From: Vicinamibacterales bacterium
GTDB lineage: Bacteria; Acidobacteriota; Vicinamibacteria; Vicinamibacterales; 2-12-FULL-66-21
NCBI GenBank assembly: GCA_040881785.1
Contig: JBBECO010000271.1
Span: 1 to 54,810, forward strand
DNA: 54,810 nt
Direction of reading: 5' to 3'
Numbering within the stretch: position 1 is the first letter of the stretch; every line of letters begins with the position of its first letter. The notes below the pieces were generated by a model that did not search any database, had not been told where the DNA came from, and saw only the letters and a program-made list of their open reading frames with translations. Positions 14,719-50,061 of this stretch are shown here, in pieces. Both the position numbers and the translations under genes were made by a program.

Positions 14719-14792
14719 TGGAGCGGGCTACGGGGATCGAACCCGTCTGACTGGCTTGGGAAGCCAGGACATTACCACTATGCTAAGCCCGC
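14719..14792 (-). tRNA. tRNA-Gly (anticodon CCC)
   Basis: The reverse complement reads GCGGGCTTAGCATAGTGGTAATGTCCTGGCTTCCCAAGCCAGTCAGACGGGTTCGATCCCCGTAGCCCGCTCCA. It folds as a cloverleaf with anticodon loop TTCCCAA, T-loop GGTTCGATCC and an encoded CCA. Confidence 0.9.
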
Positions 14793-18820: not shown

Positions 18821-19641
18821 TACTTCTTGATCTGGGCCTGCATCTGGGCTTTCAGCTCCTCGAGCTGAATGCGTGCCTTTTCGAGATATTCGCTCTGCTC
18901 GAACTCCGTCACCAGCTTGTCGAGGTACGGGATCGCGGCGGCCGGCTGCCCGACCACCACCAGCGCCTGCGCCATCTGGTAGTAGACCGCGTCGCGGTGC
19001 GTGTACTCCGGGTCGTTCTTCAGGATGCCGGCGAACCGGTCGATGGCGCCCGGGATGGACATCCGCGAGCGCAGGTAGAAGAACCCGACGTTGTACTCCG
19101 ATTCGCTGAGCCGGTCCTTGGCCTCGCGCAGCCGCTGCCGGGCCTCCCCGATGAGGGCGCCATTCGGATAGCGCTGCACGTAGGTCGAGAACTCCGTGAT
19201 CGCTTCCCTGGTATCGGTCTGGTCCCGCGCCGGTCCGCGCATTTGCTTGAAATGCGCTGTGCCCAGTTGGAACTGGGCATAGTGCGCCCGGCTATGGGTG
19301 GGGAAGTGGGCGAGGAACTCCTTGTACTCGTTGATCCCCATGACCTGCCCCTCGATCGTCCCTTCGCCGAGGTACGTGTCACCGATCCCGAGCTTGGCGT
19401 CCGCGCGGAAGTTGCTCTGCGGATAGCTGTCCACGAGCTGCCGGAAATATTCACGCGCCACGTACCACCGGCGGTTGTTGAGCGCCTCGGTCCCGTTCTC
19501 AAAAAGGAACTTGTCCGGCTCCTCGGCGCCGACCGGCGGTTTCTTGGGTCCAGACGCGCCGCACGCGCTGGACGTGGCGACGAGCGCGAGGAGACACAAA
19601 CAGCGCGCGATCACGCGCGCACGGGTGCTGACGAAAGCCAT
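18820..19641 (-). CDS. bamD: Outer membrane protein assembly factor BamD (TPR lipoprotein)
   Basis: Lipoprotein signal ...LVATSSAC. FENGTEALNNRRWYVAREYFRQLVDSYPQSNFRADAKLGIGDTYL is typical of BamD/YfiO. An alternative GTG start at 19614 would give a GTGA overlap with the upstream stop. Confidence 0.85.
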   Translation of the reverse strand: MAFVSTRARVIARCLCLLALVATSSACGASGPKKPPVGAEEPDKFLFENGTEALNNRRWYVAREYFRQLVDSYPQSNFRADAKLGIGDTYLGEGTIEGQVMGINEYKEFLAHFPTHSRAHYAQFQLGTAHFKQMRGPARDQTDTREAITEFSTYVQRYPNGALIGEARQRLREAKDRLSESEYNVGFFYLRSRMSIPGAIDRFAGILKNDPEYTHRDAVYYQMAQALVVVGQPAAAIPYLDKLVTEFEQSEYLEKARIQLEELKAQMQAQIKK

Positions 19642-37615: not shown

Positions 37616-39502
37616 TCAGCGCCCGGCGGCCGGCCGGGTCTCGACATCGACGGTCAGCGTGCGCGTGCCCGACACGGCGACGTTCATCGGGATCTCGTAT
37701 TCCCCGACGGCGGCGCTGCGGATCGGGCTGAAGCTGCCCCCATTCCGGTCGGCTTCGAGCACGGAGAGCACCGACGGCGGGAGGGCCGTCAACGCCTCGC
37801 CATGCACGACGGCGCCGGCGGCCCCCGTCAGGACGCGGACGTAGATGCGATTGTTCCGGCGCGTCTCGTTGAGGACGCGGATCATCTGCGCGACGCTCTG
37901 CGGCTGCAGCGTGCGGCGCATCTCGCGCTGCTCGATCGCATTCAACTGCCGTCCGTCGGTCACCGTGACGGTCAGCGGGCCGGTCGTATTGGCGGGGATC
38001 ATCAGGTCCACGGTGGAGATCGTCTCCTCGCCGCGATAGCTGCGCGTGAGCACCTTCAGCGGGACGGTGCGGCCGGCGCGCGGCCGGAGCTCGTCGATCC
38101 ACACACGCTCGATCGTCGCGATCAGCGGCGTTTCGCTCGCGTCGATGGTGAAGTCGAGCCCGTCGAGCGTCACCGCCTCGCGGTCGTTCGACATCAGCAT
38201 GGCGAGCGGTCCGCCGACCGACGTCGCCGCGGCCAGCGTCTGCGACTCGCCGGCATACACGTCCTCGAACGTCACGTCCGCGTGGCCTCGGATCTTCACG
38301 CGTCCCTTCAGCGCGAACGTCGCGACGCCGAAGCCCCGCTCATAACCCGAGAGCGCGTTGAACAGCGTGATGTAGGAGAGCAGCGGCGTGAACGTCTCGT
38401 CGGCGCCGATGTCGAAGCGGAACGTGCGGGTCGTCGCCTCGCCGCCGCGCCGGGAGTTCAGCGTCACGGTCATCGGAATCGTCGCGGGCCCCTTCCCGAG
38501 CGTGCCGGCGATGGCGGTCGCGCGATCCTGCCGCATGGTGCCGATCACGTCGCCCAGCGTCGAGATCTTGAACGAGGACATCAGGCTCGGCAGCATCGCA
38601 TAGACATAGGCGCGTGTCATCGGCAGCGCGGCCGGTCCCATGTTGAAGAAGGGATGGCCGAACGCGTAGACCCGGTCGCCGTCGATGTGCGTGATCGTGC
38701 CGGTGGCGCCCATCTCGACGTCACCGCCGACGAGAGACACGCCGACGGCGTCCCCTTCGCGCAACGGCCCGGTCATCGCCGCACGCTCTGCGGCAGACGC
38801 GCGGCCGCCGACCGCGCCGCCGGCCATCGGGGTGAACCCGGCACCGCCGAACATCGACGTCACGAGCGCCATCGTCTCGGGCTCGAAGCCGCTCATCAAC
38901 AGCGGCGTCGCGATCGGCCTGAGCATCGTCCCGAGCTGCCCGCCTTCGGACGCCGGCAGGCCGAGCGAGCGGACGTCGGCGGCGCGGCTGGCAAACGGCG
39001 CGAGGCGCTGATACGACTGCCGCATGGCGGCCGCCAGTGATTCCGGCGTAATCGGCAGCTCGATTCGCGCGGCCTCATGCGTGCGCCGCGCGGCGGCCGC
39101 CGTCGCGTCCGTCATTTCCTCGATCGGCGTGATGCCCGCAATGGCCTCGGTGGGGAAACTCCCGATCGAGTAGGCCACGGCACCGATGAGCCGGCCGTCC
39201 ACGTAGACCGGGCTTCCGCTCATGCCAGCCGCCACGCCCGTCTTCGCGAGCGGACCGCCTTCCAGCCTCGCCAGGATCAGATCGCGTTTGGGCCCCTGGA
39301 TGTTCCGGAGCACGCCGATGATGTGCACCGTGAATTCGCTCAGCTCGCTTCCCTCGAAGACCGTGCGGCCGACACCGACCATGCCCGGCTTGACCTCGGC
39401 CACGGGCATCAACCGGGCCCGGGCCTGCCGGGCCGAGACGTCGAGCGAGACAAGGGGCAGGGCGGCGAGCAGCAGCGCCGCGGCGGCAGTTCTGTAAGTC
39501 AT
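37616..39502 (-). CDS. S55 (SpoIVB-like) / trypsin-fold serine peptidase family protein
   Basis: Signal peptide. N-terminal region MPVAEVKPGMVGVGRTVFEGSELSEFTVHIIGVL...GPLAKTGVAAGMSGSPVYVDGRLIGAVAY with a GMSGSPVY catalytic-serine motif, as in peptidase S55. Confidence 0.7.
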   Translation of the reverse strand: MTYRTAAAALLLAALPLVSLDVSARQARARLMPVAEVKPGMVGVGRTVFEGSELSEFTVHIIGVLRNIQGPKRDLILARLEGGPLAKTGVAAGMSGSPVYVDGRLIGAVAYSIGSFPTEAIAGITPIEEMTDATAAAARRTHEAARIELPITPESLAAAMRQSYQRLAPFASRAADVRSLGLPASEGGQLGTMLRPIATPLLMSGFEPETMALVTSMFGGAGFTPMAGGAVGGRASAAERAAMTGPLREGDAVGVSLVGGDVEMGATGTITHIDGDRVYAFGHPFFNMGPAALPMTRAYVYAMLPSLMSSFKISTLGDVIGTMRQDRATAIAGTLGKGPATIPMTVTLNSRRGGEATTRTFRFDIGADETFTPLLSYITLFNALSGYERGFGVATFALKGRVKIRGHADVTFEDVYAGESQTLAAATSVGGPLAMLMSNDREAVTLDGLDFTIDASETPLIATIERVWIDELRPRAGRTVPLKVLTRSYRGEETISTVDLMIPANTTGPLTVTVTDGRQLNAIEQREMRRTLQPQSVAQMIRVLNETRRNNRIYVRVLTGAAGAVVHGEALTALPPSVLSVLEADRNGGSFSPIRSAAVGEYEIPMNVAVSGTRTLTVDVETRPAAGR

Positions 39503-39576: not shown

Positions 39577-39663
39577 GGGTCAGAAGTTGATTCTTGCGCG
39601 ATTGTCCGCCACCGGGGACAGTCGTGCGATGAGGACAATCGCGCAAGAATCAAGATCTGACCC
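39577..39663. repeat. Long inverted repeat: 21-bp perfect stem plus an 8-bp outer extension, with a 25-nt loop
   Basis: TTGATTCTTGCGCGATTGTCC (39587-39607) is the exact reverse complement of GGACAATCGCGCAAGAATCAA (39633-39653). The outer arms GGGTCAGA (39577-39584) and TCTGACCC (39656-39663) pair after a 2x2 mismatch. Confidence 0.85.
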
Positions 39664-39704
39664 ACTTGCAGTTCCTCGGCGCCTCTGTTAAGGTCACAAA
39701 CGTT

Positions 39705-39791
39705 TTGACGCAGAACGTCCTCAGCCGGTCGAGCCGCTATGACCAGTCCTATTGGTGGTGGCACGTCTGTGCTGGGGGTGCGAACTGTTAG
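39705..39791 (+). CDS. Candidate trp leader peptide, (M)TQNVLSRSSRYDQSYWWWHVCAGGANC
   Basis: Three consecutive TGG codons at 39753-39761, preceded by two Tyr codons. Stop TAG at 39789-39791. In-frame TTG starts at 39705 (AAGG 11 nt upstream) or 39666; there is no in-frame ATG or GTG. It sits 33 nt upstream of an intrinsic terminator and in front of the trp genes. Confidence 0.5.
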   Translation: MTQNVLSRSSRYDQSYWWWHVCAGGANC

Positions 39792-39823
39792 CCGTCTAAC
39801 GACACGACGGCGCCGGATCCAAG

Positions 39824-39860
39824 CCTCCCAGCCCTGCGGCTGAGGAGGTTTTTTTATTTT
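39824..39860 (+). terminator. Intrinsic terminator in the 5' leader (attenuator) of the aro/trp supraoperon
   Basis: Stem CCTCCCAGCC / GGCTGAGGAGG (11 bp with one bulged A), loop CTGC, followed by TTTTTTTATTTT. No plus-strand gene lies upstream for it to terminate. Confidence 0.75.
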
Positions 39861-39883
39861 GACGTGTAGCGCAGCCCTTTATG

Positions 39884-39931
39884 GGCTGCCGGATCGGCTG
39901 CCGGATCGGCTGCCTGATGGGCTGCCTGAGA
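39884..39931 (+). repeat. Four tandem 12-bp repeats GGCTGCC(G/T)GAT(C/G)
   Basis: Units at 39884-39895, 39896-39907, 39908-39919 and 39920-39931, between the terminator and the aroDE start. A 7-bp hairpin GCAGCCC-TTTAT-GGGCTGC (39871-39889) overlaps the first unit. Confidence 0.85.
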
Positions 39932-39934
39932 ACG

Positions 39935-41401
39935 ATGACTCAACTCTGCGCGACGGTCACGGGACGGACGATGGAGGAGGTGCGGCGTGCGCGGGACGCC
40001 GCGGCCGGCGCCGACATCATCGAGGTCCGCCTGGACGGCGTCGCGGATCCCGACCCGGCTGCCGCGCTCGAAGGACGGCTGCGGCCTGTGATCGTGACCT
40101 GCCGTCCCCGGTGGGAAGGCGGCGGCTTCGACGGATCCGAGGAGGAGCGCCGACGGGTGCTGGTCGGGGCGATGGACGCCGGGGCGGAGTACGTGGACGT
40201 CGAGCTGCGGGCCGGATTCGCGGGGGACCTTCTGCGCCTTCGGCGCGGCCGCGGTGTCGTCGTGTCGATGCACCAGTTCGGCCCGCGCTCCGGCGATCTG
40301 GACGGCCAGATGCGCGCACTCCGGTCCACCGGCGCGGACGTCGTCAAGCTGGCCGTGGAGGTGGACTCGCTGGCCGAGACGCTGCCGCTCTACGAGCTCG
40401 GCCTTCGCGCCGGGCAGGAAGGCGGCCGGCAGGGGCACGTGCTGATCGCCATGGGACCGCGCGGCACGCATACCCGCGTGCTCGCCGCCCGGCTGCGCAA
40501 CCGATGGACGTATGCCGGGGAGGCCGTCGCGCCCGGGCAGCTCCCTGCAGATCGTCTGCTCGAGGAATTCAGGTTCCGGCGAATCTCGCCTGATGCGGAT
40601 CTCTACGGTGTGGTCGGCGCTCCCGTCTCGCAGTCCCTGTCGCCGGCGATGCACAACGCCGGGTTCGCGCACGCGGGACTCAACGCGGCCTACCTCGCGC
40701 TCGAGGCGAGGGACGCCGACGACTTCGTCACCTTCGCCCGCGCCATGGGCCTGCGCGGGGCCTCGATCACGGCCCCGCTGAAGGTGGACATGCTGAAACG
40801 GGTGGACGAATGCGATCCGCTCTCGACCCGCGTCGGCGCCATCAATACGCTGATCATCCGGGATGGGCGCTGGATCGGGACGAACACCGACCTTGCCGGA
40901 TTCGTGACGCCGCTCAAAGGGCGGATGGCGCTCCGCGGCACCCGCGCCGCCGTGCTCGGTGCCGGCGGCGCCGCGCGCGCGGTGGCGGTGGCGCTGAAAG
41001 GGGAAGGCGCACGCGTCCGCATCTGCGCGCGGCGCGCGGATCAGGCCAGAGACGTGGCCGCGCAGCTCCGCGTACTCGCAGGCCCCTTCCCGCCACGACC
41101 GGGGACGTGGGACGTCCTCGTGAACGCCACCAGCAGCGGCCGTCAGGCCGGTGACGTGAACCCCATGGCGGGGATGCGACTCGACGGCGAGATCGTCTTC
41201 GACCTGACGTACTCGCCGGAAGTGACGCCGCTGATCGCGCAGGCGCGCGAGGCGGGCTGCTGGACGATCGGCGGGATCGAGATGCTCATCGGCCAGGCGG
41301 AGCGGCAATTCGAGCTCTGGACGGGCGAGGCGCCCCCTCCGGGGTTGTTCCGGGCCGCCGTCGACACCGCCCGGGGATTGCAAACAGGAGTGCGCGCGTG
41401 A
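39935..41401 (+). CDS. aroD/aroE: Bifunctional 3-dehydroquinate dehydratase (type I) / shikimate dehydrogenase fusion
   Basis: N-terminal half LCATVTGRTMEE...ADIIEVRLD...VIVTCR...EYVDVEL... is type I DHQase-like. C-terminal half YGVVGAPVSQSLSPAMHNAGF...GASITAPLK...NTD..GF is AroE-like. Preferred start MTQLCATV at 39935. The ORF-track ATG at 39881 would translate the 12-bp repeats. Confidence 0.85.
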   Translation: MTQLCATVTGRTMEEVRRARDAAAGADIIEVRLDGVADPDPAAALEGRLRPVIVTCRPRWEGGGFDGSEEERRRVLVGAMDAGAEYVDVELRAGFAGDLLRLRRGRGVVVSMHQFGPRSGDLDGQMRALRSTGADVVKLAVEVDSLAETLPLYELGLRAGQEGGRQGHVLIAMGPRGTHTRVLAARLRNRWTYAGEAVAPGQLPADRLLEEFRFRRISPDADLYGVVGAPVSQSLSPAMHNAGFAHAGLNAAYLALEARDADDFVTFARAMGLRGASITAPLKVDMLKRVDECDPLSTRVGAINTLIIRDGRWIGTNTDLAGFVTPLKGRMALRGTRAAVLGAGGAARAVAVALKGEGARVRICARRADQARDVAAQLRVLAGPFPPRPGTWDVLVNATSSGRQAGDVNPMAGMRLDGEIVFDLTYSPEVTPLIAQAREAGCWTIGGIEMLIGQAERQFELWTGEAPPPGLFRAAVDTARGLQTGVRA

Positions 41402-42888
41402 AACAGACGTCGTTCGAAGAGTTCGTGGATCTTTCCCGTCGCGGCACCTTCGTGCCGGTGGTCCGGGAAATCATGGCCGACCTGCTGACGCCGGTCTCGG
41501 CCTTCATCAAGATCGCGGAACACTCCGACTACGCCTTCCTGTTCGAGTCGGTCGAAGGGGGTGAACAGGTCGCGCGGTACTCGTTCCTCGGCAAGGACCC
41601 GTTTCTCGTGCTGCGGGCCCGGGGCAGCCGCAGCGTCATCGACCGGTCCGGCGTCACGAGTGAGCTCGACGAGCCCTTCGTCTCCGTGATGCGCCGGCTG
41701 ATGACCGAATTCCGCGCGCCGTTCGTGCCGGGCCTGCCGCGCTTTACGGGGGGCGCCGTGGGCTTCGTCGGCTACGACGCGGCGGCCGTCTTCGAACCGG
41801 CGCTCGAGGAGGCGTGGCGCGACGCCGGCTGGTCGGGCGACGCGGCCGCCGAAGATGACGCCGGGTTCATGCTGTTCGACACGGTGCTGGCGTTCGATCA
41901 CGTGAAGCACCGCATCCTGATCATCGCCAACGCGCGCGTGACGGCCGACGAAGATCTCGGCGCGCTCTACCAGTTCGCCTGCGCGAAGATCGATTTCCTC
42001 GAACGGGAGCTCGAGCGCGGCCTCTCGCAACCGGAGCGGACGATTGGCGCGGCGCCCGCCGTCTGGTCCAACCTGACGCAGGCGGAGTTCGAGGGCGGCG
42101 TGCGCGCGATCCAGGAACGGATCAACGCCGGGGACATCTACCAGGCCGTCCTTTCGCAGCGCTTCGAGGCGGACGTGACGGCCGATCCGTTCACCGTCTA
42201 CCGGGCCCTGCGCCACGTGAACCCCTCGCCCTACATGTATTTTCTCCGCATGGGCCGGCTCGCCATTGTCGGCTCGAGTCCGGAGATGCTCGTCCGGGTC
42301 GAAGGACGGCGCGTCGAGACCCATCCGATCGCCGGCACGCGTCCCCGCGGCAGCAACGACGAAGACGACCTGCGCCTCGCCGAGGAACTCAGGCGCAGCG
42401 AGAAGGAACGGGCCGAGCATGTCATGCTCGTGGACCTCGGGCGCAACGATCTCGGGCGCGTGAGCGACTTCGGCTCGGTGCGCGTGCCGCAGTACATGAC
42501 GCTCGAGCGCTACTCGCACGTCATGCACCTCGTCTCGACGGTCGAGAGCACGCTGGCCGAGGAGTACGATCACCTCGACGCGCTGGTCGCCTGCTTTCCG
42601 GCAGGCACCGTCTCCGGCGCGCCGAAGATCCGCGCGATGCAGATCCTCGCCGCGCTCGAGCCCACCCGGCGCGACATCTACGCCGGGGCGGTGGGCTACA
42701 TCGACTTTGCCGGCAACCTGGATTTCTGCATCGCGATCCGGACGATCACGATCCGCGACGGGCGCGCGCGGATCCAGGCCGGGGCGGGCATCGTCGCCGA
42801 CTCGAACCCCGCGGGCGAGTACGACGAGACCTGCGACAAGGCGCGCGCCCTGCTGCAGGCGCTCACGATGGCCGAAGCCGGGCTCTGA
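41398..42888 (+). CDS. trpE: Anthranilate synthase component I
   Basis: LLTPVSAF, LFESVEGGE..ARYSF and GAVGY..F.GNLDFCIAIRT motifs. GTGA overlap with aroDE. Confidence 0.95.
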   Translation: MKQTSFEEFVDLSRRGTFVPVVREIMADLLTPVSAFIKIAEHSDYAFLFESVEGGEQVARYSFLGKDPFLVLRARGSRSVIDRSGVTSELDEPFVSVMRRLMTEFRAPFVPGLPRFTGGAVGFVGYDAAAVFEPALEEAWRDAGWSGDAAAEDDAGFMLFDTVLAFDHVKHRILIIANARVTADEDLGALYQFACAKIDFLERELERGLSQPERTIGAAPAVWSNLTQAEFEGGVRAIQERINAGDIYQAVLSQRFEADVTADPFTVYRALRHVNPSPYMYFLRMGRLAIVGSSPEMLVRVEGRRVETHPIAGTRPRGSNDEDDLRLAEELRRSEKERAEHVMLVDLGRNDLGRVSDFGSVRVPQYMTLERYSHVMHLVSTVESTLAEEYDHLDALVACFPAGTVSGAPKIRAMQILAALEPTRRDIYAGAVGYIDFAGNLDFCIAIRTITIRDGRARIQAGAGIVADSNPAGEYDETCDKARALLQALTMAEAGL

Positions 42889-42897
42889 GGTGCCGCC

Positions 42898-43458
42898 GTG
42901 CTCCTGCTGATCGACAACTACGATTCGTTCACCTGGAACCTCGCCCAGTATTTCGGCGAGCTCGGTGCGCCGCCGCTCGTCAAGCGAAACGACGAGCTGA
43001 CGCTCGACGAGGTCGCGGCGCTGCATCCCGAGCGGATCGTGATCTCCCCGGGGCCCGGGCGTCCCGAGCAGGCGGGCATCTCGATCGACCTCATTCGGCG
43101 CTTCGGCCCGACCACGCCGGTCCTGGGCGTCTGTCTCGGCCATCAGGCTATCGGCATGGCGTTTGGCGGCGAGGTCGTCCGCGCGACGAGTCTCATGCAC
43201 GGGAAGGTGTCGTCGGTCGGGCACGACGGCAAAGGCGTGTTCAAGGGAATCTCGCAGCCGTTTACAGCAGCCCGCTATCACTCCCTCATCGTCGCCGATC
43301 CGCTGCCGCCGGATCTCGAAGCCAGCGCGCACGCCGACGACGGCACGCTGATGGGGCTGCGGCATCGCCGCCTGCCGATCCACGGCGTCCAGTTCCATCC
43401 CGAGTCGGTGCTCACGACGGAAGGGCACCAGCTGCTGCGCAATTTCCTGGAGCTCTGA
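42898..43458 (+). CDS. trpG: Anthranilate synthase component II (glutamine amidotransferase)
   Basis: LLIDNYDSFTWNL, GVCLGHQ catalytic Cys, and the GVQFHPES triad region. Confidence 0.95.
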   Translation: MLLLIDNYDSFTWNLAQYFGELGAPPLVKRNDELTLDEVAALHPERIVISPGPGRPEQAGISIDLIRRFGPTTPVLGVCLGHQAIGMAFGGEVVRATSLMHGKVSSVGHDGKGVFKGISQPFTAARYHSLIVADPLPPDLEASAHADDGTLMGLRHRRLPIHGVQFHPESVLTTEGHQLLRNFLEL

Positions 43459-44483
43459 TGTTCGCCCCGCTACTCGAAAAGCTGCACCGCCGAGAGGACC
43501 TCACGACCGACGAAGCCGCGGCGGCGATGGGGGAGATCATGGAAGGCCGCGCGCAGCCGGCGCAGATCGCCGGCCTGCTCGTCGCCCTGCGGATGAAAGG
43601 CGAGCGGCCGGCCGAGATCGTCGGGCTCGCCCGGACGATGCGGGCGCGCGCCACGAAGCTGTCGCGCGCGTTCGCCCCGGCGTTCGATACGTGCGGCACG
43701 GGCGGCGACAGCGCGCACACGTTCAACGTCTCGACCGTCGCCGCGCTCGTGCTCGCCGCGTGCGGCGTGCGGGTCGCCAAACACGGCAACCGATCCGTCT
43801 CGAGCCGCTGCGGCAGCGCCGATCTGTTCGAGGCGCTGGGCGTGAAGATCACGGCGCCCCCCGACATTGTCGAGCGCTGCCTGGACGAGGCCGGCCTGGC
43901 CTTCTTCTTTGCGCCGACGTTCCATCCGTCCATGCGCCACGCCGCCGCCACGCGCCGCGAGCTCGGGATCCGGACGGCGTTCAACCTGTTGGGCCCCTTG
44001 ACCAACCCCGCCGGGGCGTCGCGACAGCTCGTCGGAGTGCCGCGCCCTGAGCTGACGGAGCTCGTGGCCCGGTCGCTGGCGCTCCTGGGCTCGGAACGCG
44101 CCTGGGTCGTGCACGGCGCCGACGGCCTCGACGAGATCTCGACGACCGGCTACACGAAGGTGTCGGAATGCCGCGCCGGGTCGGTCAACACGTTCTACGT
44201 GCATCCCGCGGATTTCCAGTTGCCCAAGGCGGCGCCCGACGCGTTGAAGGGCGGGGATGCGGCCGAGAACGCCGTCATCGCGCAGCGCATTCTCTCGGGT
44301 GAGCGGGGCGCGCCGCGCGACATCGTGCTGCTGAACGCCGCGGTCTCGCTGTTCATTGCGGGGACCGTGGCGACGGTACCCGAGGGCATCGCGCGCGCCG
44401 CGGCGGCCATTGACAGCGGCGCGGCGGCCGGGGTCCTCGATCGCCTGGTGGCGGTGTCGAACGCCGGGGGCACCGGCTCATGA
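43458..44483 (+). CDS. trpD: Anthranilate phosphoribosyltransferase
   Basis: DTCGTGGDSAHTFNVST and KHGNRSVSS motifs. 1-nt TGATG overlap with trpG. Confidence 0.95.
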   Translation: MFAPLLEKLHRREDLTTDEAAAAMGEIMEGRAQPAQIAGLLVALRMKGERPAEIVGLARTMRARATKLSRAFAPAFDTCGTGGDSAHTFNVSTVAALVLAACGVRVAKHGNRSVSSRCGSADLFEALGVKITAPPDIVERCLDEAGLAFFFAPTFHPSMRHAAATRRELGIRTAFNLLGPLTNPAGASRQLVGVPRPELTELVARSLALLGSERAWVVHGADGLDEISTTGYTKVSECRAGSVNTFYVHPADFQLPKAAPDALKGGDAAENAVIAQRILSGERGAPRDIVLLNAAVSLFIAGTVATVPEGIARAAAAIDSGAAAGVLDRLVAVSNAGGTGS

Positions 44484-45280
44484 CGGCGACCGCTTCGACG
44501 CCCGACCTGCTGGGTGCGATCGTCGCGGCGGCGCGTGCCGCCGTGGCGGACCGCGCCGTCCTGTGCCCGATCGAGCGGCTCGTCGAAGAACAGACCTACA
44601 CGCCGCGCGGGGACGCGTTCGCGGCGGCCCTGCGGACGAGCGCCGCCCCGCGCATCATCGCCGAGTGCAAGCGGCGGTCGCCGTCGCGCGGCATCCTGCG
44701 CCAGCAGTACCGCCCTGTCGCGCACGCGCGCGCATACGCCGCGGCGGGCGCCGCCGCGATCTCGGTCCTCACCGAGCCGACGTTCTTCGACGGTGAACCT
44801 GCGCACCTGGCCGCTGTGAGAGCCGCCGTCCCGACACCCCTGCTGCGCAAGGACTTCATCGTGACGGAGTACCAGGTGCACGAATCCGCCGTGCTCGGCG
44901 CCGACGCCGTGCTGCTGATTGCGGCGGCGCTCTCCGATGGCGAGCTGCGGCGTCTGCGCCAGTGTGCCGTCTCCCTTGGGCTGGCCGCGCTCGTCGAGGT
45001 CCACAGCCGGGCGGAGCTCGATCGCGCCCTGGCGGCCGGCGCGGAGGTCATCGGCGTGAACCGCAGAAATCTGCGGACGCTGGAGGTGGATCTCGACGTG
45101 GTCGTCACGCTGGCAGCCGCCATCCCGGACGCCATCGTCTCGGTGGCCGAAAGCGGCATCCGCACGGCCGACGACATCCGCCGCTTGACGGCCCTCGGCT
45201 ACGACGCGTTCCTGATCGGCGAGCGTCTCATCACACAGCCCGATCCCGGCGCCGCGCTGGAGGCGCTGCGCGCGCCATGA
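44480..45280 (+). CDS. trpC: Indole-3-glycerol phosphate synthase
   Basis: IAECKRRSPS.G, ISVLTEPTFF.G and LRKDFI motifs. ATGA overlap with trpD. Confidence 0.95.
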   Translation: MTATASTPDLLGAIVAAARAAVADRAVLCPIERLVEEQTYTPRGDAFAAALRTSAAPRIIAECKRRSPSRGILRQQYRPVAHARAYAAAGAAAISVLTEPTFFDGEPAHLAAVRAAVPTPLLRKDFIVTEYQVHESAVLGADAVLLIAAALSDGELRRLRQCAVSLGLAALVEVHSRAELDRALAAGAEVIGVNRRNLRTLEVDLDVVVTLAAAIPDAIVSVAESGIRTADDIRRLTALGYDAFLIGERLITQPDPGAALEALRAP

Positions 45281-45909
45281 CCCTCGTGAAGATCTGCGGC
45301 ATCACGCGGCTCGACGATGCACAGCTGGCGGTGGAGCTCGGGGCCTCCGCCATCGGGTTCGTCTTCTGGCCCTCGAGCCCGCGGTACATTCCTCCGTCGC
45401 GCGCGGCCGAGATCGTCGAAGCGCTGCCGCCGCGCGTGGCCTTCATCGGGGTCTTCGTGGACCAGACACGCAATTTCGTGTGGAACGCGGCCGAACAGGT
45501 GGGGCTGACCGCCCTGCAGCTTCACGGTGAGGAGACGCTGGCGTTCGCGGCGACACTGCCCCGGCCTGTCATCAAGGCGGTGCCGGTCGCCACCGACTTC
45601 TCGCTCGAGGCGGTCATGGACATTCCGCGGTCGATCACGGTGCTGCTCGATGCCCACGATCCGGTCAGGCGCGGGGGAACCGGTGAAACGATCGACTGGT
45701 CGGCCGCCGCCGCGGTCGCCTGGCGCCGCCCGATCTTCCTGTCGGGGGGCTTGCACGCCGGGAACATCCGCGAGGCCATCGCCCGCGTGAATCCCCATGC
45801 CGTCGATATCTCATCGGGGGTGGAATCGGCACCGGGGATCAAGGATCCCGCGAAGCTGCGCGCGCTCTTCGCCGCACTCGATCGAGAGGAGGAGGCCGAT
45901 GACGATTGA
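45277..45909 (+). CDS. trpF: Phosphoribosylanthranilate isomerase
   Basis: [15 protein letters not shown] start, [23 protein letters not shown] overlap with trpC. Confidence 0.9.
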
Positions 45910-47119
45910 CGCCGCGCCGTCGTTCGGCAGGCGGGATCCCGATGCGCGCGGCTACTTCGGCGCCTACGGAGGGCGCTTCGTCCCCGAGACGCTCGTCGCG
46001 CCGGTACAGGAGCTCGAACGCGCCTACTTCGAGGCGCGCCGCGATCCAGCCTTCCGCGACGAGCTGGTGCGGCTGCTGCGCGACTACGTCGGCCGCGCGA
46101 CGCCGCTCTACGAGGCGCGCCGGCTCTCCACCGCCCTCGGCGGCGCGCGCATCTTCCTGAAGCGGGAGGATCTCGCGCACACCGGCGCTCACAAGATCAA
46201 CAACGCGCTCGGCCAGGCCCTGCTGGCGCAGCGCATGGGCAAGCGCCGCATCGTCGCCGAGACCGGCGCCGGGCAGCACGGGGTCGCGACCGCGACCGTC
46301 TGCGCGTTGCTCGGGCTCGAGTGTCACGTCTATATGGGCGTCGAGGACATGGAGCGGCAGGCGCTCAACGTCTTCCGCATGCGCCTGCTCGGCGCGACCG
46401 TGCGCCCGGTGGACGCCGGCAGCCGCACGCTCAAGGACGCGATCAACGAGGCCATGCGTGACTGGGTCACCCATGTCGCCGACACGTACTACCTCCTGGG
46501 GTCGGTGCTCGGACCGCACCCGTATCCCCTCATGGTGCGCGAGTTCCAGTCGGTCATCGGGCAGGAAGCGCGCGCCCAGATCCTCGACGCCACTGGACGA
46601 CTGCCGGAGGCCGTGGTGGCCTGCATCGGCGGCGGCAGCAACGCGATGGGGATCTTCGACGCGTTCATCGACGACGCGTCGGTCCGCCTGATCGGCGTCG
46701 AGGCCGGCGGACGCGGCATCCGCCCGGGCCAGCATGCGGCGCGTTTCGCCGGCGGAGCGGCCGGTGTCCTTCAAGGCACGCGCAGCTACGTCCTGCAGGA
46801 CGACGACGGCAACATCGAATTGACGCATTCCATCTCTGCCGGCCTCGACTACGCCGCGATCGGCCCCGAACACGCTTCGCTTCACGAATCCGGACGAGCG
46901 GAATACACCTGGATCGATGACGAGGACGCGCTGGCGGCGTTCGAGCGTCTGGGCCGCGAGGAGGGGATCCTGCCGGCGCTGGAGTCGTCGCACGCCGTGG
47001 CCCACGCGTGCCGGCTGGCGCCGGAACTCGGTGCCGGCGCCGTGCTGATCGTCAACCTCTCCGGCCGCGGCGACAAGGACGTCCAGACCGTCCAGAAAGT
47101 GCTGGAGGGACGCGGCTGA
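45899..47119 (+). CDS. trpB: Tryptophan synthase beta chain
   Basis: [14 protein letters not shown], the [12 protein letters not shown]-lysine motif, and ETGAGQHG. It overlaps the trpF end by 11 nt. Confidence 0.95.
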
Positions 47120-47907
47120 TGGGACGTCTGGCCACCACGTTCGACGAGCTGCGGAAGGCTGGCCGCGGCGGACTCGTGGCGTATGTGACGGCCGGTGACC
47201 CTGACGCCGAGACGTCGCAGGAAATCCTCATCGCTCTGGCCGACGGGGGCGCCGACGTCATCGAGGTCGGCGTGCCGTTCTCGGATCCGCTCGCCGACGG
47301 TCCGGTGATTCAGCGCGCCAGCGAACGTGCCCTGGCGGCCGGCATGACGCTGCGCGGCGCGCTCGCGCTCGTGAAGGCCGTGCGACAGCAGGTCGCGACG
47401 CCGATCGTGCTCTTCACGTATGCCAATCCGGTCGTCCGGATGGATCCGCAGGCCTTCGCGCAGGCCGCGAGCGACGCCGGCGTGGACGGCGTGCTGATTC
47501 TCGACTATCCGGTGGAGGAGGCTGAACCGCTGCGCGGACCGCTCGTGGACGCCGGACTGGACCCGATCTTCCTCATCAGCCCGACCACCAGCGACGAGCG
47601 GATCCGTCGGGCATCCGCGCTCGGCGCGGGATTTCTGTATGTGATCTCCCGGCTCGGTGTCACGGGCGCGCGCGACGAGATGGCCGGCGACGCCGGCGCG
47701 CTGGTCGCACGCATCCGGCGGCACGCGACCCTCCCGGTGGCGCTCGGTTTCGGGATCTCCCGCCCGGAGCACGTGGCTGAAGCCTGCCGCCACGCCGACG
47801 CCGCCGTCGTCGGGAGCGCAATCGTGAACGTGATCGCGAAGCACGGCCGGAACGGGGCCGGAGAGGCGGTGCGCGAGTATGTGCGATGGCTGAAAAGCGC
47901 CCTGTGA
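47119..47907 (+). CDS. trpA: Tryptophan synthase alpha chain
   Basis: GADVIEVGVPFSDPLADGPVIQ motif. 1-nt TGATG overlap with trpB. Confidence 0.95.
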   Translation: MGRLATTFDELRKAGRGGLVAYVTAGDPDAETSQEILIALADGGADVIEVGVPFSDPLADGPVIQRASERALAAGMTLRGALALVKAVRQQVATPIVLFTYANPVVRMDPQAFAQAASDAGVDGVLILDYPVEEAEPLRGPLVDAGLDPIFLISPTTSDERIRRASALGAGFLYVISRLGVTGARDEMAGDAGALVARIRRHATLPVALGFGISRPEHVAEACRHADAAVVGSAIVNVIAKHGRNGAGEAVREYVRWLKSAL

Positions 47908-48176
47908 TGTCGATCGACGAGCTGCGCCGGCGGATCGACGAGATCGACACCGACCTCGTCGCGTTGCTCAATGCCCGGGCCGAGTGCGCCCTGGCGATCG
48001 GCCAGGCCAAGAAAGCCGCCGGGCTGGACCTCTACCAGCCGGCGCGGGAATCGGACGTCCTGCACCACGTGCAGCACATCAACGGCGGTCCGCTGGACGA
48101 CGAGGCCGTGAAGCGCCTGTTCGAACGGATCATCGACGAGGCCAGACGCCTGGAGCGACTGGCGGACTTAGAATAG
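47907..48176 (+). CDS. Chorismate mutase (AroQ class)
   Basis: MSIDELRRRIDEIDTDLVALLNARAECALAIGQAKK is typical of AroQ CM. The preferred start gives a 1-nt TGATG overlap with trpA. An alternative ATG exists at 47886. Confidence 0.85.
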   Translation: MSIDELRRRIDEIDTDLVALLNARAECALAIGQAKKAAGLDLYQPARESDVLHHVQHINGGPLDDEAVKRLFERIIDEARRLERLADLE

Positions 48177-48216
48177 AGAGTGAGCATCCGGCACTCCGAA
48201 AGCAGCATTGCTTCTT

Positions 48217-49263
48217 ATGGTTATCGTCATGCAGGAACGCGCGACCGGCGAGCAGGTCGAGCGCGTCATCGCCCAGCTGGTTGAAATGGGGTTCGACATC
48301 CACCGGTCCACCGGCGCCCTGCGCACGGTGATCGGGGCGGTCGGCGGCAAAACGGCGGATCCGCGGCTCATCGAACTGCTCGATGGCGTCCAGGAAGTGC
48401 TGCGCATCACCGAGCCGTACAAGCTCGCGAGCCGCAGCTTCAAACCCGAGAACACGGTCATCAGCGTCGGCGACGTCCGCATCGGCGGGGATGAAGTCAT
48501 CGTGATGGCCGGACCGTGCTCGGCTGAAACGCCGGAACAGGTGGACGCGGCGGCGGCCGCGGTCAAGCGGGCGGGCGCCAAAATCCTGCGGGGGGGTGCG
48601 TACAAACCGCGCAGTTCGCCGTACAGCTTCCAGGGCCTCGGCGAGGAGGGCCTGCGGATGCTCCGCGGCGCGGCAGACCGTCACCACCTCAAGCTGATCT
48701 CCGAGGTCATGGACATCAGCCAGATCGAGACGATCGAGAAGTACGCGGACATCCTGCAGGTCGGCGCGCGGAACATGCAGAACTACACGCTGCTGCGCGA
48801 GCTGGGCAAGTCGAAAGCGCCGGTGATGCTGAAGCGCGGGATCTCGGCGACGATCGAGGAGTGGCTGCTCTCGGCCGAGTACATCCTGGCCGGCGGCAAC
48901 ATGAACGTGACGCTCTGCGAGCGCGGCATCCGGACGTTCGAGAGCTACACCCGCAACACGCTGGATATTTCCGCCATCCCGGTCGTCCAGCAGTTGAGCC
49001 ATCTGCCGATCATCGTGGACCCGAGTCATGGCACCGGACGGCGGGACAAGGTTGCCTCGATGGCGCGTGCGGCGGTGGCGGCCGGCGCGGACGGCCTGAT
49101 CATCGAGGTGCACTGTGATCCGGATCACGCGATGAGTGACGGGGCGCAGTCGATGTTCCCGGCGCAGTTCGACCGCCTGATGGCGGAGCTGCGGATCATC
49201 GCGCCGGCCATCGGCCGCAGCATCTGCCTCGAGCCGGTGGCGCGCCGCGGCTGGAGCCGCTAG
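48217..49263 (+). CDS. 3-deoxy-7-phosphoheptulonate (DAHP) synthase, type I-beta, with an N-terminal ferredoxin-like regulatory domain
   Basis: Collinear with Thermotoga-type DAHPS as recalled from memory: MVIVMQ...RTVIGAVGG regulatory domain, then [49 protein letters not shown] and DPSH. Confidence 0.9.
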
Positions 49264-49266
49264 GGC

Positions 49267-50061
49267 GTGCGACGGGTCGCGATCGTCGGCCGCGGGCTCA
49301 TCGGCGGTTCGATCGAGCGCGCGGCGCGCGAGCGCCTTCCCGGCCTCGAGCTGATCGTCCTCGACCGCGGTGACGCCCTGACTGCGGCGGCGAACGCCGA
49401 CCTCATCGTGCTGTCGGCGCCGATCGGGGAGATCGTCGGCCTCCTCGGCGCGCTGCGACCGATTGTCACGCCCGCCACCCTCATCACGGATACCGGGAGC
49501 ACGAAGGCCGCGATCGTATCGGCCGCCTCCGGCCTGCGCTTCATTGGTGGACACCCGATCGCCGGAGCGGCCGCGTCGGGCCTGGCGGCGGCGCGCGCGG
49601 ACCTCTTCGCCGGCCGTCCGTGGGTCCTGACGCCCGCGGCCGGTAGTGATCCCGGTGACCTGGAGCGCCTGCGGGCGTTCGTCAGCAGCCTCGGCGCCCG
49701 CCCGTACACGCTGGACGCCGCCGAGCACGATCGCCTCTTTGCCTACGTCAGTCACCTGCCGCAGCTCGTCGTCAGCGCGCTGATGGATGTCGTGGGGACG
49801 GCTGTGGGCGCGGAGGGGCTGGCGCTCGCCGGATCAGGCTTGCGCGACAGCACCCGCCTCGCGAGCAGCCCGCCGGCGATCTGGCGGGACATAGCGAGTA
49901 CCAACCAGGCCCACATCGGTCCCGCCATTGACGCGCTCATCGAAGCACTCGAGACCCTGCGGTCCGACAACGCCGCCTCGCTGACCGCCACCTTCGAGCG
50001 GGCGGCGCGGTGGCGGGCTGCCCTGGAGGGGGCGGAGCCTCGTGGGGTCAGCTCGATATAA
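49267..50061 (+). CDS. tyrA: Prephenate dehydrogenase
   Basis: [12 protein letters not shown] Rossmann motif, GGHPIAG, and the SHLPQLV motif typical of TyrA. Confidence 0.85.

Follow-up and report, generated by a model that had tools for sequence, protein, structure and literature searches.

The locus considered here raises a simple question: why do a short reading frame rich in tryptophan (Trp) codons and a strong transcription terminator stand together in a divergent intergenic region, just ahead of a large cluster of aromatic amino-acid genes? The locus belongs to a stretch of 54,810 nt, hereafter called the window, which covers positions 1 to 54,810 of contig JBBECO010000271.1 from a Vicinamibacterales genome (Acidobacteriota; assembly GCA_040881785.1). 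A first-pass annotation, made from the letters of this stretch, had read the locus as a candidate ribosome-mediated Trp attenuator. The computational follow-up reported here points, with a probability of about 0.85, to a ribosome-mediated (leader-peptide) Trp attenuator placed before an aromatic supraoperon. In this attenuator, an antiterminator formed by regions 2 and 3 of the leader (R2 and R3) would compete with a terminator formed by R3 and region 4 (R4).

The WWW frame, its stop codon and the terminator all lie where the first-pass annotation had placed them (Table 1). Over the whole window, 0.29 copies of the motif TGGTGGTGG are expected. Its only further copy, at 18954 on the minus strand, is intragenic, in a non-Trp frame, and reads L-V-V-V; it was rejected. 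The terminator begins 33 nt past the leader stop and consists of a 10-bp G/C-rich stem (C39824-C39833 with G39838-G39848) that holds one bulged A (39843), is closed by a CUGC loop and can be extended into the tail by G-U and A-U pairs. Folded alone, it reaches -21.1 kcal/mol (z = -3.8) and none of 200 shuffles is as good; because of the bulge, it was overlooked by a simple scanner. As previously proposed, there is no plus-strand gene upstream that this terminator could end, since the upstream gene (37616-39502, with a weak match to SpoIVB/S55 peptidases) is on the minus strand. R2 is located 9 nt 3' of the last Trp codon and 8 nt 5' of the stop codon, and its pairing with R3 gives in the window an antiterminator helix of 8 bp (39771-78 with 39825-32).

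The first line of evidence is the recurrence of this arrangement in relatives. Searching the AroDE protein against one genome per GTDB species, with a finder that returns close relatives only, led to 36 loci (31-71% identity), almost all labelled Vicinamibacterales or Acidobacteriota. Thirty-four of them, which show 42-71% identity, all belong to Vicinamibacterales or other Acidobacteriota and were thus retrieved by protein homology without any nucleotide information, carry just upstream of aroDE a Trp-rich frame (WWW, WWYW, WRWYW or similar) located 95-100 nt before a strong hairpin, and a T-run follows this hairpin in all 34 cases. The two loci that lack the element are outgroups (Desulfocapsa and an unclassified metagenome-assembled genome (MAG)). 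Such a recurrence upstream of aroDE, joined to the rarity of TGGTGGTGG, excludes chance.

A DNA pattern derived from the conserved pieces was also run on the GTDB representative genomes and gave at least 120 matches. At least 92 of these possess R4 and the T-run and, wherever the downstream sequence could be scored, are followed on the same strand by aroDE or, in one case (L115), by trpE. Among the matches listed, 28 failed the R4 and T-run test: 24 of these have no aro or trp gene nearby and are noise, three (L044, L045 and L050) precede aroDE and look like missed members, and L150 has the 3' arm and runs off its contig. After removal of duplicates, at least 119 distinct leaders were obtained, and the element is present in more than 120 related soil Acidobacteriota genomes. 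Among these leaders, the first position of the codon core is W in 119 of 119 and the second in 116, the third is W in 74 or Y in 35 and the fourth is Y in 71 or W in 24. Three W are found within the 7-codon core in 94 of the 119.

The second line of evidence is covariation in the two helices. Aligned with MAFFT, the 35 protein-anchored leaders show three conserved blocks, namely R2 (GCUGAGGRGGC), R3 (GCCUCCUCAGC) and R4 (GCUGAGGAGGC, then U's). In this alignment, 98.1% of the R3:R4 cells are paired and six pairs have changed on both sides; 0 of 500 shuffles reach the observed values, and sliding the partner by 1-3 columns leaves 34-56% paired. In the same way, 90.7% of the R2:R3 cells are paired, with five pairs changed on both sides, none of 500 shuffles reaching either the observed percentage of pairing or the covariation score, and 43-56% of pairing in the slid-partner controls. 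The larger alignment of 119 leaders gives 91.5% for R2:R3 and 97.9% for R3:R4, but the pattern by which its members were found already demands purine/pyrimidine (R/Y) compatibility of R2 and R3, so that the alignment of 35 leaders is the only unbiased test. One column links the three strands: it holds A/U/A in 67, G/C/G in 28 and G/U/A in 19 of the 119 leaders, and combinations that break a pair occur in just five (one of which breaks both pairs). Such a pattern is what marks a terminator and an antiterminator that compete for a common strand. Conservation and covariation therefore strongly support the class that the first-pass annotation had proposed for this element before an aro/trp supraoperon. 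In the comparison of orthologous leaders that it had advised, tandem Trp codons and terminator are kept in 34 of the 36 loci and the arms covary. The R2:R3 pairing, which it had given as a side observation only, turns out to be the conserved and covarying antiterminator.

Table 1. Coordinates, in the window, of the predicted leader elements and of the genes that follow them
Feature	Position	Strand	Remarks
-35-like hexamer TTGCAG	39666..39671	+	Same position as the TTGACA of relatives; 17-nt spacer to the -10 element
Extended -10 element TGT-TAAGGT	39686..39694	+	Aligns with the TGn-TATNGT of relatives; hexamer 39689-94; predicted from sequence
Leader open reading frame (ORF)	39705..39791	+	TTG start, 28 codons, TAG stop at 39789-91; reads (M)TQNVLSRSSRYDQSYWWWHVCAGGANC
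Region 1	39718..39727	+	CCUCAGCCGG; possible anti-antiterminator partner of region 2
Regulatory codons UAU UGG UGG UGG (Tyr-Trp-Trp-Trp)	39750..39761	+	Three TGG at 39753-61
Region 2 (R2)	39771..39781	+	GCUGGGGGUGC; antiterminator 5' strand, within the leader ORF
Small hairpin GCCGUC-N9-GACGGC	39791..39811	+	Begins at the stop codon, within the antiterminator loop
Region 3 (R3)	39823..39833	+	Terminator 5' arm and antiterminator 3' strand
Region 4 (R4)	39838..39848	+	Terminator 3' arm
U-tract	39849..39860	+	TTTTTTTATTTT; T7AT4 directly after the hairpin
Supraoperon, putatively regulated	39935..50061	+	NCBIfam and Pfam assignments, ORF reading
Chorismate-mutase-like ORF, 96 aa	47886-48176	+	Between trpA and DAHP synthase; AroQ-type look by sequence (MSIDELRRRIDEIDTDLVALLNARAE...)
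DAHP synthase	48208-49263	+	
Prephenate dehydrogenase tyrA	49267-50061	+	

Some members stand apart by their label or their placement. The trpE-adjoining leader (L115, 1838-1961), the sole case of this kind among the matches listed, is carried by a contig labelled Longimicrobiales and lies directly 5' of a trpE whose product shares 69% identity with TrpE of the window, with no aroDE between them; its Gemmatimonadota label may reflect a binning error or a transfer. Four loci labelled Bifidobacteriaceae (L022), Bifidobacterium breve (L054), Actinomycetota (L109) and Solibacteraceae (L042) have typical Vicinamibacteria-type leaders followed by aroDE/trpE, and are probably mis-binned contigs. In two MAGs of Vicinamibacteraceae and Luteitalea (L027 and L028), the distance between the leader and the start of the AroDE match exceeds that of the other loci by 210-260 nt, which may be due to an insertion or to a protein match that starts late.

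The spacing of the elements fits a decision taken by ribosome position. Counted from the first base of the codon in the A site, the ribosome was assumed to cover positions -15 to +12. When this codon is one of the three UGG, the ribosome reaches about 39765-71. As it covers the leader up to 39771 at most, R2 (39771-81) is exposed. With the stop codon in the A site, the ribosome covers 39774-39801, that is, most of R2. The spacing seen in the window is also the commonest one, since in 21 of the 35 leaders 9 nt separate the last W from R2 and 8 nt separate R2 from the stop; elsewhere among these leaders, the gap between W and R2 ranges from 6 to 18 nt.

A similar picture comes from partition-function folding of the window transcript under ribosome constraints. 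In the free RNA, the probability of the terminator is 0.54 and that of the 2:3 helix 0.42. These values become 0.00 and 0.76-0.89 with a ribosome at W1-W3, then 0.96 and 0.00 with a ribosome at the stop codon. For the relatives, the folding of nascent RNAs that end at R3 is more informative than equilibrium folding of the full leader: with a ribosome at W, 27-28 of the 35 loci form the 2:3 helix, and placing the ribosome at the stop codon abolishes this helix in 31 of the 35. The small hairpin that begins at the leader stop is present in all predicted folds of the window. Close relatives have equivalent hairpins of other sequence (CCUGC/GCAGG, CCGCG/CGCGG), and in the clade with WWYW leaders such hairpins are not universal. 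It may act as a spacer or as a nucleation point for the 2:3 helix.

Taken together, these elements suggest the following course of events (coordinates in Table 1). Transcription would start a few nucleotides downstream of a sigma-70-type promoter, leaving essentially no 5' untranslated region (UTR), and a ribosome would begin to translate the nascent RNA at TTG 39705. Under a shortage of charged tRNA-Trp, this ribosome would stall at the three UGG codons, its leading edge being just before R2. R2 would then pair with R3 once the latter is transcribed, the terminator would be blocked and RNA polymerase would read into aroDE-trpEGDCFBA-aroQ-aroF-tyrA. When Trp is plentiful, the ribosome would reach the stop codon, 8 nt past R2, and would cover R2; R3 would thus be left to pair with R4 and transcription would end in the U-tract.

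The place where this leader would start was worked out from the promoter region of the relatives. In most of them, the promoter consists of TTGACA, a spacer of 17-18 nt and TGn-TATNGT, and a match of at least 10/12 to TTGACA/TATNGT is found at this position in 91 of 115 loci. A strict consensus scanner for promoters and terminators missed both the non-consensus promoter of the window and its bulged terminator. Among the 91 loci with a clear promoter, 74 have their first in-frame start 6-16 nt past the -10 hexamer, most commonly 9 nt (10 nt separate the -10 element from TTG 39705 in the window), and these 74 starts are TTG (28), ATG (28) or GTG (18). TTG 39705 corresponds by homology to the ATG or GTG with which relatives begin their leader frame (TTGACGC versus ATGACCC and ATGAGCC). 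The use of TTG, which the first-pass annotation regarded as the weak point of its proposal, is thereby largely accounted for: relatives have TTG, ATG or GTG at the place of TTG 39705, whereas the other start that had been considered, TTG 39666, belongs to the -35 element.

Across relatives, the predicted leader peptides are 22-41 aa long. The promoter-proximal start keeps a fixed relation to the Trp codons despite the varying length of the spacer, and the conserved Tyr positions use TAT as well as TAC; both features indicate that the leader frame would be read as codons. Since the promoter adjoins the start, the leader mRNA of these loci would be leaderless or have a 5' UTR of a few nucleotides, with no room for a Shine-Dalgarno sequence, and the transcript of the window would likewise be leaderless or nearly so. 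Another ORF, which begins with ATG (39739-39843, 34 codons, MTSPIGGGTSVLGVRTVSRLTTRRRRIQASQPCG), overlaps the leader in another frame and stops inside the terminator. It was ruled out as the leader ORF because its ATG is not kept in relatives.

Several points weigh against ribosome-mediated attenuation at this locus. The putative start is a TTG preceded by a 5' UTR of a few nucleotides at most, without a Shine-Dalgarno sequence, and a UUG so close to the 5' end may not allow efficient initiation. All the genomes compared are MAGs, and the unbiased test of covariation covers the 35 protein-anchored leaders. Furthermore, in the full-length RNA of the relatives at equilibrium, the terminator wins nearly always, whatever the position of the ribosome. 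The antiterminator must therefore act kinetically, by forming first, and equilibrium folding cannot demonstrate the switch.

The last of these points concerns region 1, for which a classical 1:2 anti-antiterminator or pause hairpin is weakly supported. In the free window leader, the fold of lowest energy pairs region 1 with 39768-78. Across relatives, the energies of the 1:2 duplex are no better than those of shuffles (z mostly -1.5 to +0.6), R2 pairs upstream in just 13 of the 35 untranslated nascent RNAs and the position of region 1 varies; in the close relatives, a few consistent changes (A-U, G-U, G-C) can be seen by eye. The role of region 1 is thus uncertain.

It is nevertheless region 1 that the first-pass annotation had taken as the antiterminator: a ribosome stalled at the Trp codons would mask R2, and 39718-26 would then capture the 3' arm of the terminator (1:4 pairing). 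The pairings from which this wiring was built are real, since those of 39718-26 with 39771-78 and of 39771-78 with 39824-32 both appear in predicted folds, and the complementarity of region 1 to the terminator 3' arm is even longer than claimed, with 13 of 14 positions (39714-27 with 39837-50). The claim that this match is better than the bulged stem of the terminator itself also holds in the window, with duplex energies of -26.3 kcal/mol for 1:4 and -22.0 kcal/mol for 3:4. In folds with a ribosome at W, the 1:4 helix also forms, nested together with 2:3, with a probability of about 1. A ribosome at W, however, leaves R2 free. With the mask that had been advised for such a fold (39741-75), 1:4 alone reaches 0.06 and the terminator stays at 0.94. 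The 1:4 pairing is also weaker than 3:4 in all 34 relatives, often much weaker, and negligible in several of them. Such complementarity is an automatic by-product of the register, because region 1 pairs with region 2, region 2 with region 3 and region 3 with region 4, and its strength in the window results from the likeness of segment 1 to segment 3 and of segment 2 to segment 4. In addition, a helix closed around a stalled ribosome with linkers of 11 and 3-6 nt would seem sterically doubtful. It is thus quite improbable that this wiring is the one used.

Two other explanations were considered. The unit could be mainly an independent small gene, producing a trans-acting small RNA (sRNA) or a Trp-rich small protein and exerting no control in cis. 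Its own promoter, its transcript of about 155 nt and its strong terminator do correspond to the format of an sRNA, and the analogous rnTrpL/peTrpL of Sinorhizobium meliloti has documented trans functions (PMC6614838, PMC7298713). There is also a weak likeness to its Rfam family RcsR1 (RF02552; 13.2 bits, E = 7.1, 39742-39855), which against a gathering score of 60 is insignificant and does not make the element a family member. In every scorable member among the matches listed, however, aroDE or trpE follows the unit directly on the same strand. Moreover, the R2:R3 covariation would have no purpose in a free-standing gene, and no separate aroDE promoter is evident within 75 nt past the terminator. 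An exclusively independent gene is therefore very unlikely, and a trans role could exist in addition to attenuation, not instead of it. The leader could also sense another signal, either free Trp through a TnaC-like nascent peptide or an RNA-binding protein or tRNA acting on the UGG-rich RNA. The S-Y-W-W-W-Y context is indeed more conserved than bare Trp codons would need. Yet the operon is biosynthetic, the pairing of R2 at the RNA level accounts for the residues (A-E-G/E-A) conserved past the W codons, and the swaps from W to Y (WWW versus WWYW versus WWYY) fit the counting of codons better than a fixed peptide or RNA motif. The T-box core GGUGGNACC was not found in the leader, whose six (G/U)AG triplets are scattered and form a longest correctly spaced chain of 1 (9-11 triplets, 2-3 nt apart, being the criterion for TRAP). 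Between 39400 and 40000 at E <= 10, Rfam searches gave for the leader no family other than RcsR1, and thus neither Trp_leader (RF00513) nor T-box; they gave no leader family in the whole window at the gathering threshold. Sensing of such a signal would be highly surprising.

Within ribosome-mediated attenuation, a narrower proposal is that the leader is multivalent, responding to both Trp and Tyr in keeping with the content of the operon. In 114 of the 119 leaders, the Trp codons are bordered or broken up by Tyr codons (Y-W-W-W-Y, W-W-Y-W or W-W-Y-Y), and the core rarely contains Phe codons (17 of 119). As the operon includes tyrA and no gene of the Phe branch, the Tyr codons of the cluster match its content and suggest, without proving it, a dual sensing of Trp and Tyr; this remains a tentative proposal. 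If it were true, a ribosome stalled at a Trp or at a Tyr codon would leave R2 uncovered. In addition, on a leaderless and often UUG-starting mRNA, the loading of the ribosome on the nascent 5' end would be part of the timing and would replace the 1:2 pause hairpin.

Comparison with known systems shows which parts of this arrangement are familiar. Like the attenuator of the trp operon of Escherichia coli (trpL, RF00513), the element combines a short ORF containing tandem Trp codons with mutually exclusive 2:3 and 3:4 helices, between which the position of the ribosome would decide. In both cases, the terminator is thermodynamically favoured and the switch must be kinetic; the antiterminator of E. 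coli acts kinetically. However, the two leaders have no similarity of sequence or structure. The element carries three Trp codons with flanking Tyr codons, instead of two Trp codons in E. coli, and its poorly supported region 1 is upstream of the Trp codons rather than containing them. It also has a TTG start with no room for a Shine-Dalgarno sequence, and the genes that it would control include, besides the trp genes, those of the common pathway and of the Tyr branch.

The leaders of Streptomyces trpE (the trp attenuator of S. venezuelae and TrpL1 of S. lividans) are closer in format: they belong to high-GC hosts, are leaderless and have three consecutive Trp codons. For example, TrpL1 of S. 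lividans (MFAHSTRNWWWTAHPAAH) is encoded by a leaderless transcript with hairpins and a U-stretch before trpE (PMC8079986). They differ by their phylum, by the lack of any detectable sequence relationship and by their ATG start (TTG, ATG or GTG here), and they precede a monocistronic trpE whereas the element heads a 12-gene aro-trp-tyr operon. In the same way, trpL/rnTrpL of S. meliloti (RcsR1, RF02552) is leaderless and has a WWW peptide, an antiterminator (SL2) and a terminator (SL3); the 5' end of this terminated RNA of about 110 nt is the AUG of trpL, which encodes the WWW peptide (PMC6614838, PMC7298713). Unlike the present element, for which no trans function is known, rnTrpL and peTrpL have proven ones, and rnTrpL controls trpE(G) only.

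The genes placed under the element recall another system, the aro supraoperon of Bacillus subtilis (aroFBH-trpEDCFBA-hisC-tyrA-aroE), in which Trp-dependent termination occurs before trpE through the TRAP protein, which binds 11 (G/U)AG repeats. In both cases, the trp genes are included in a larger aromatic supraoperon together with tyrA and genes of the common pathway. The leader described here has no TRAP repeats, and its attenuator is located before the whole supraoperon instead of being internal.

What sets this element apart is the lineage, the frequent TTG start, the location of the attenuator before a whole aro-trp-tyr supraoperon and the Tyr codons inside the Trp cluster. The mechanism of attenuation and the leaderless WWW format were already known, in particular from Streptomyces and Sinorhizobium, and the element does not change the understanding of how attenuation works. 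The novelty claimed by the first-pass annotation is accordingly fair for the lineage and does not extend to the mechanism. A literature search found no paper on a trp leader of Acidobacteria or Vicinamibacteria, but an earlier in silico prediction may exist. Acidobacteriota are among the most abundant soil bacteria and, to our knowledge, almost nothing is known about their gene regulation. According to one survey, almost none of the attenuators predicted in Acidobacteria had an associated function (PMC2965389). The element would mark where the whole aromatic amino-acid supraoperon of Vicinamibacteria is controlled. A promoter consensus at these loci (TTGACA-N17/18-TGnTATNGT) also emerges, and the leaders point to the use, in this lineage, of 5' UTRs that are very short or lacking, together with TTG, GTG or ATG starts. 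With at least 119 distinct leaders and the support of covariation, there is enough material for an Rfam family.

The genes found downstream agree with those announced by the first-pass annotation (aroDE-trpEGDCFBA), and chorismate mutase, DAHP synthase and tyrA come after them. The full order is an aroD/E fusion, trpE, trpG, trpD, trpC, trpF, trpB, trpA, chorismate mutase, DAHP synthase and tyrA, the probable start of aroD/E being ATG 39935. The operon thus includes the common pathway, the Trp branch and the Tyr branch, with no Phe-specific gene. By its sequence, the 96-aa ORF that follows trpA looks like an AroQ-type chorismate mutase. As the genes adjoin or overlap one another, those from aroD/E to tyrA are presumably co-transcribed. 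Between 39800 and 54810, the scanner returned three plus-strand sites that resemble terminators, and four such sites when both strands are taken together, to be compared with a mean of 4.8 in shuffles; the three plus-strand sites were not counted as internal terminators.

Two repeated sequences flank the leader. Between its terminator and the probable aroDE start lies a 12-nt tandem repeat (GGCTGCCGGATC, about four copies, 39881-39928), which is in frame with aroDE from an upstream ATG (39881) and would read MGCRIGCRIGCLMGCL. Relatives do not have this repeat, and their T-run is 20-45 nt from the start codon.

On the other side, directly 5' of the leader promoter, is a near-perfect palindrome of 87 nt (39577-39663) with 31-nt arms that are 94% complementary. 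The folding energy of its single-stranded DNA is -35.6 kcal/mol (z = -8.6). A homologue in one related locus (L005, 2911-2994) shares its termini (GGGGTCAGATCTTG...CAAGATCTGACCCC), has changes in one arm that are matched in the other, and is placed differently, between the attenuator terminator of that locus and aroDE. The palindrome looks like a small mobile palindromic element, similar to miniature inverted-repeat transposable elements (MITEs) or repetitive extragenic palindromic (REP) sequences. The matches to the Rfam family mir-315 correspond to this palindrome, not to the leader. At the gathering threshold, the only Rfam matches of the window are a complete tRNA gene at 14722-14792 on the minus strand and a partial one at 1-50 on the plus strand, which is cut by the start of the window.

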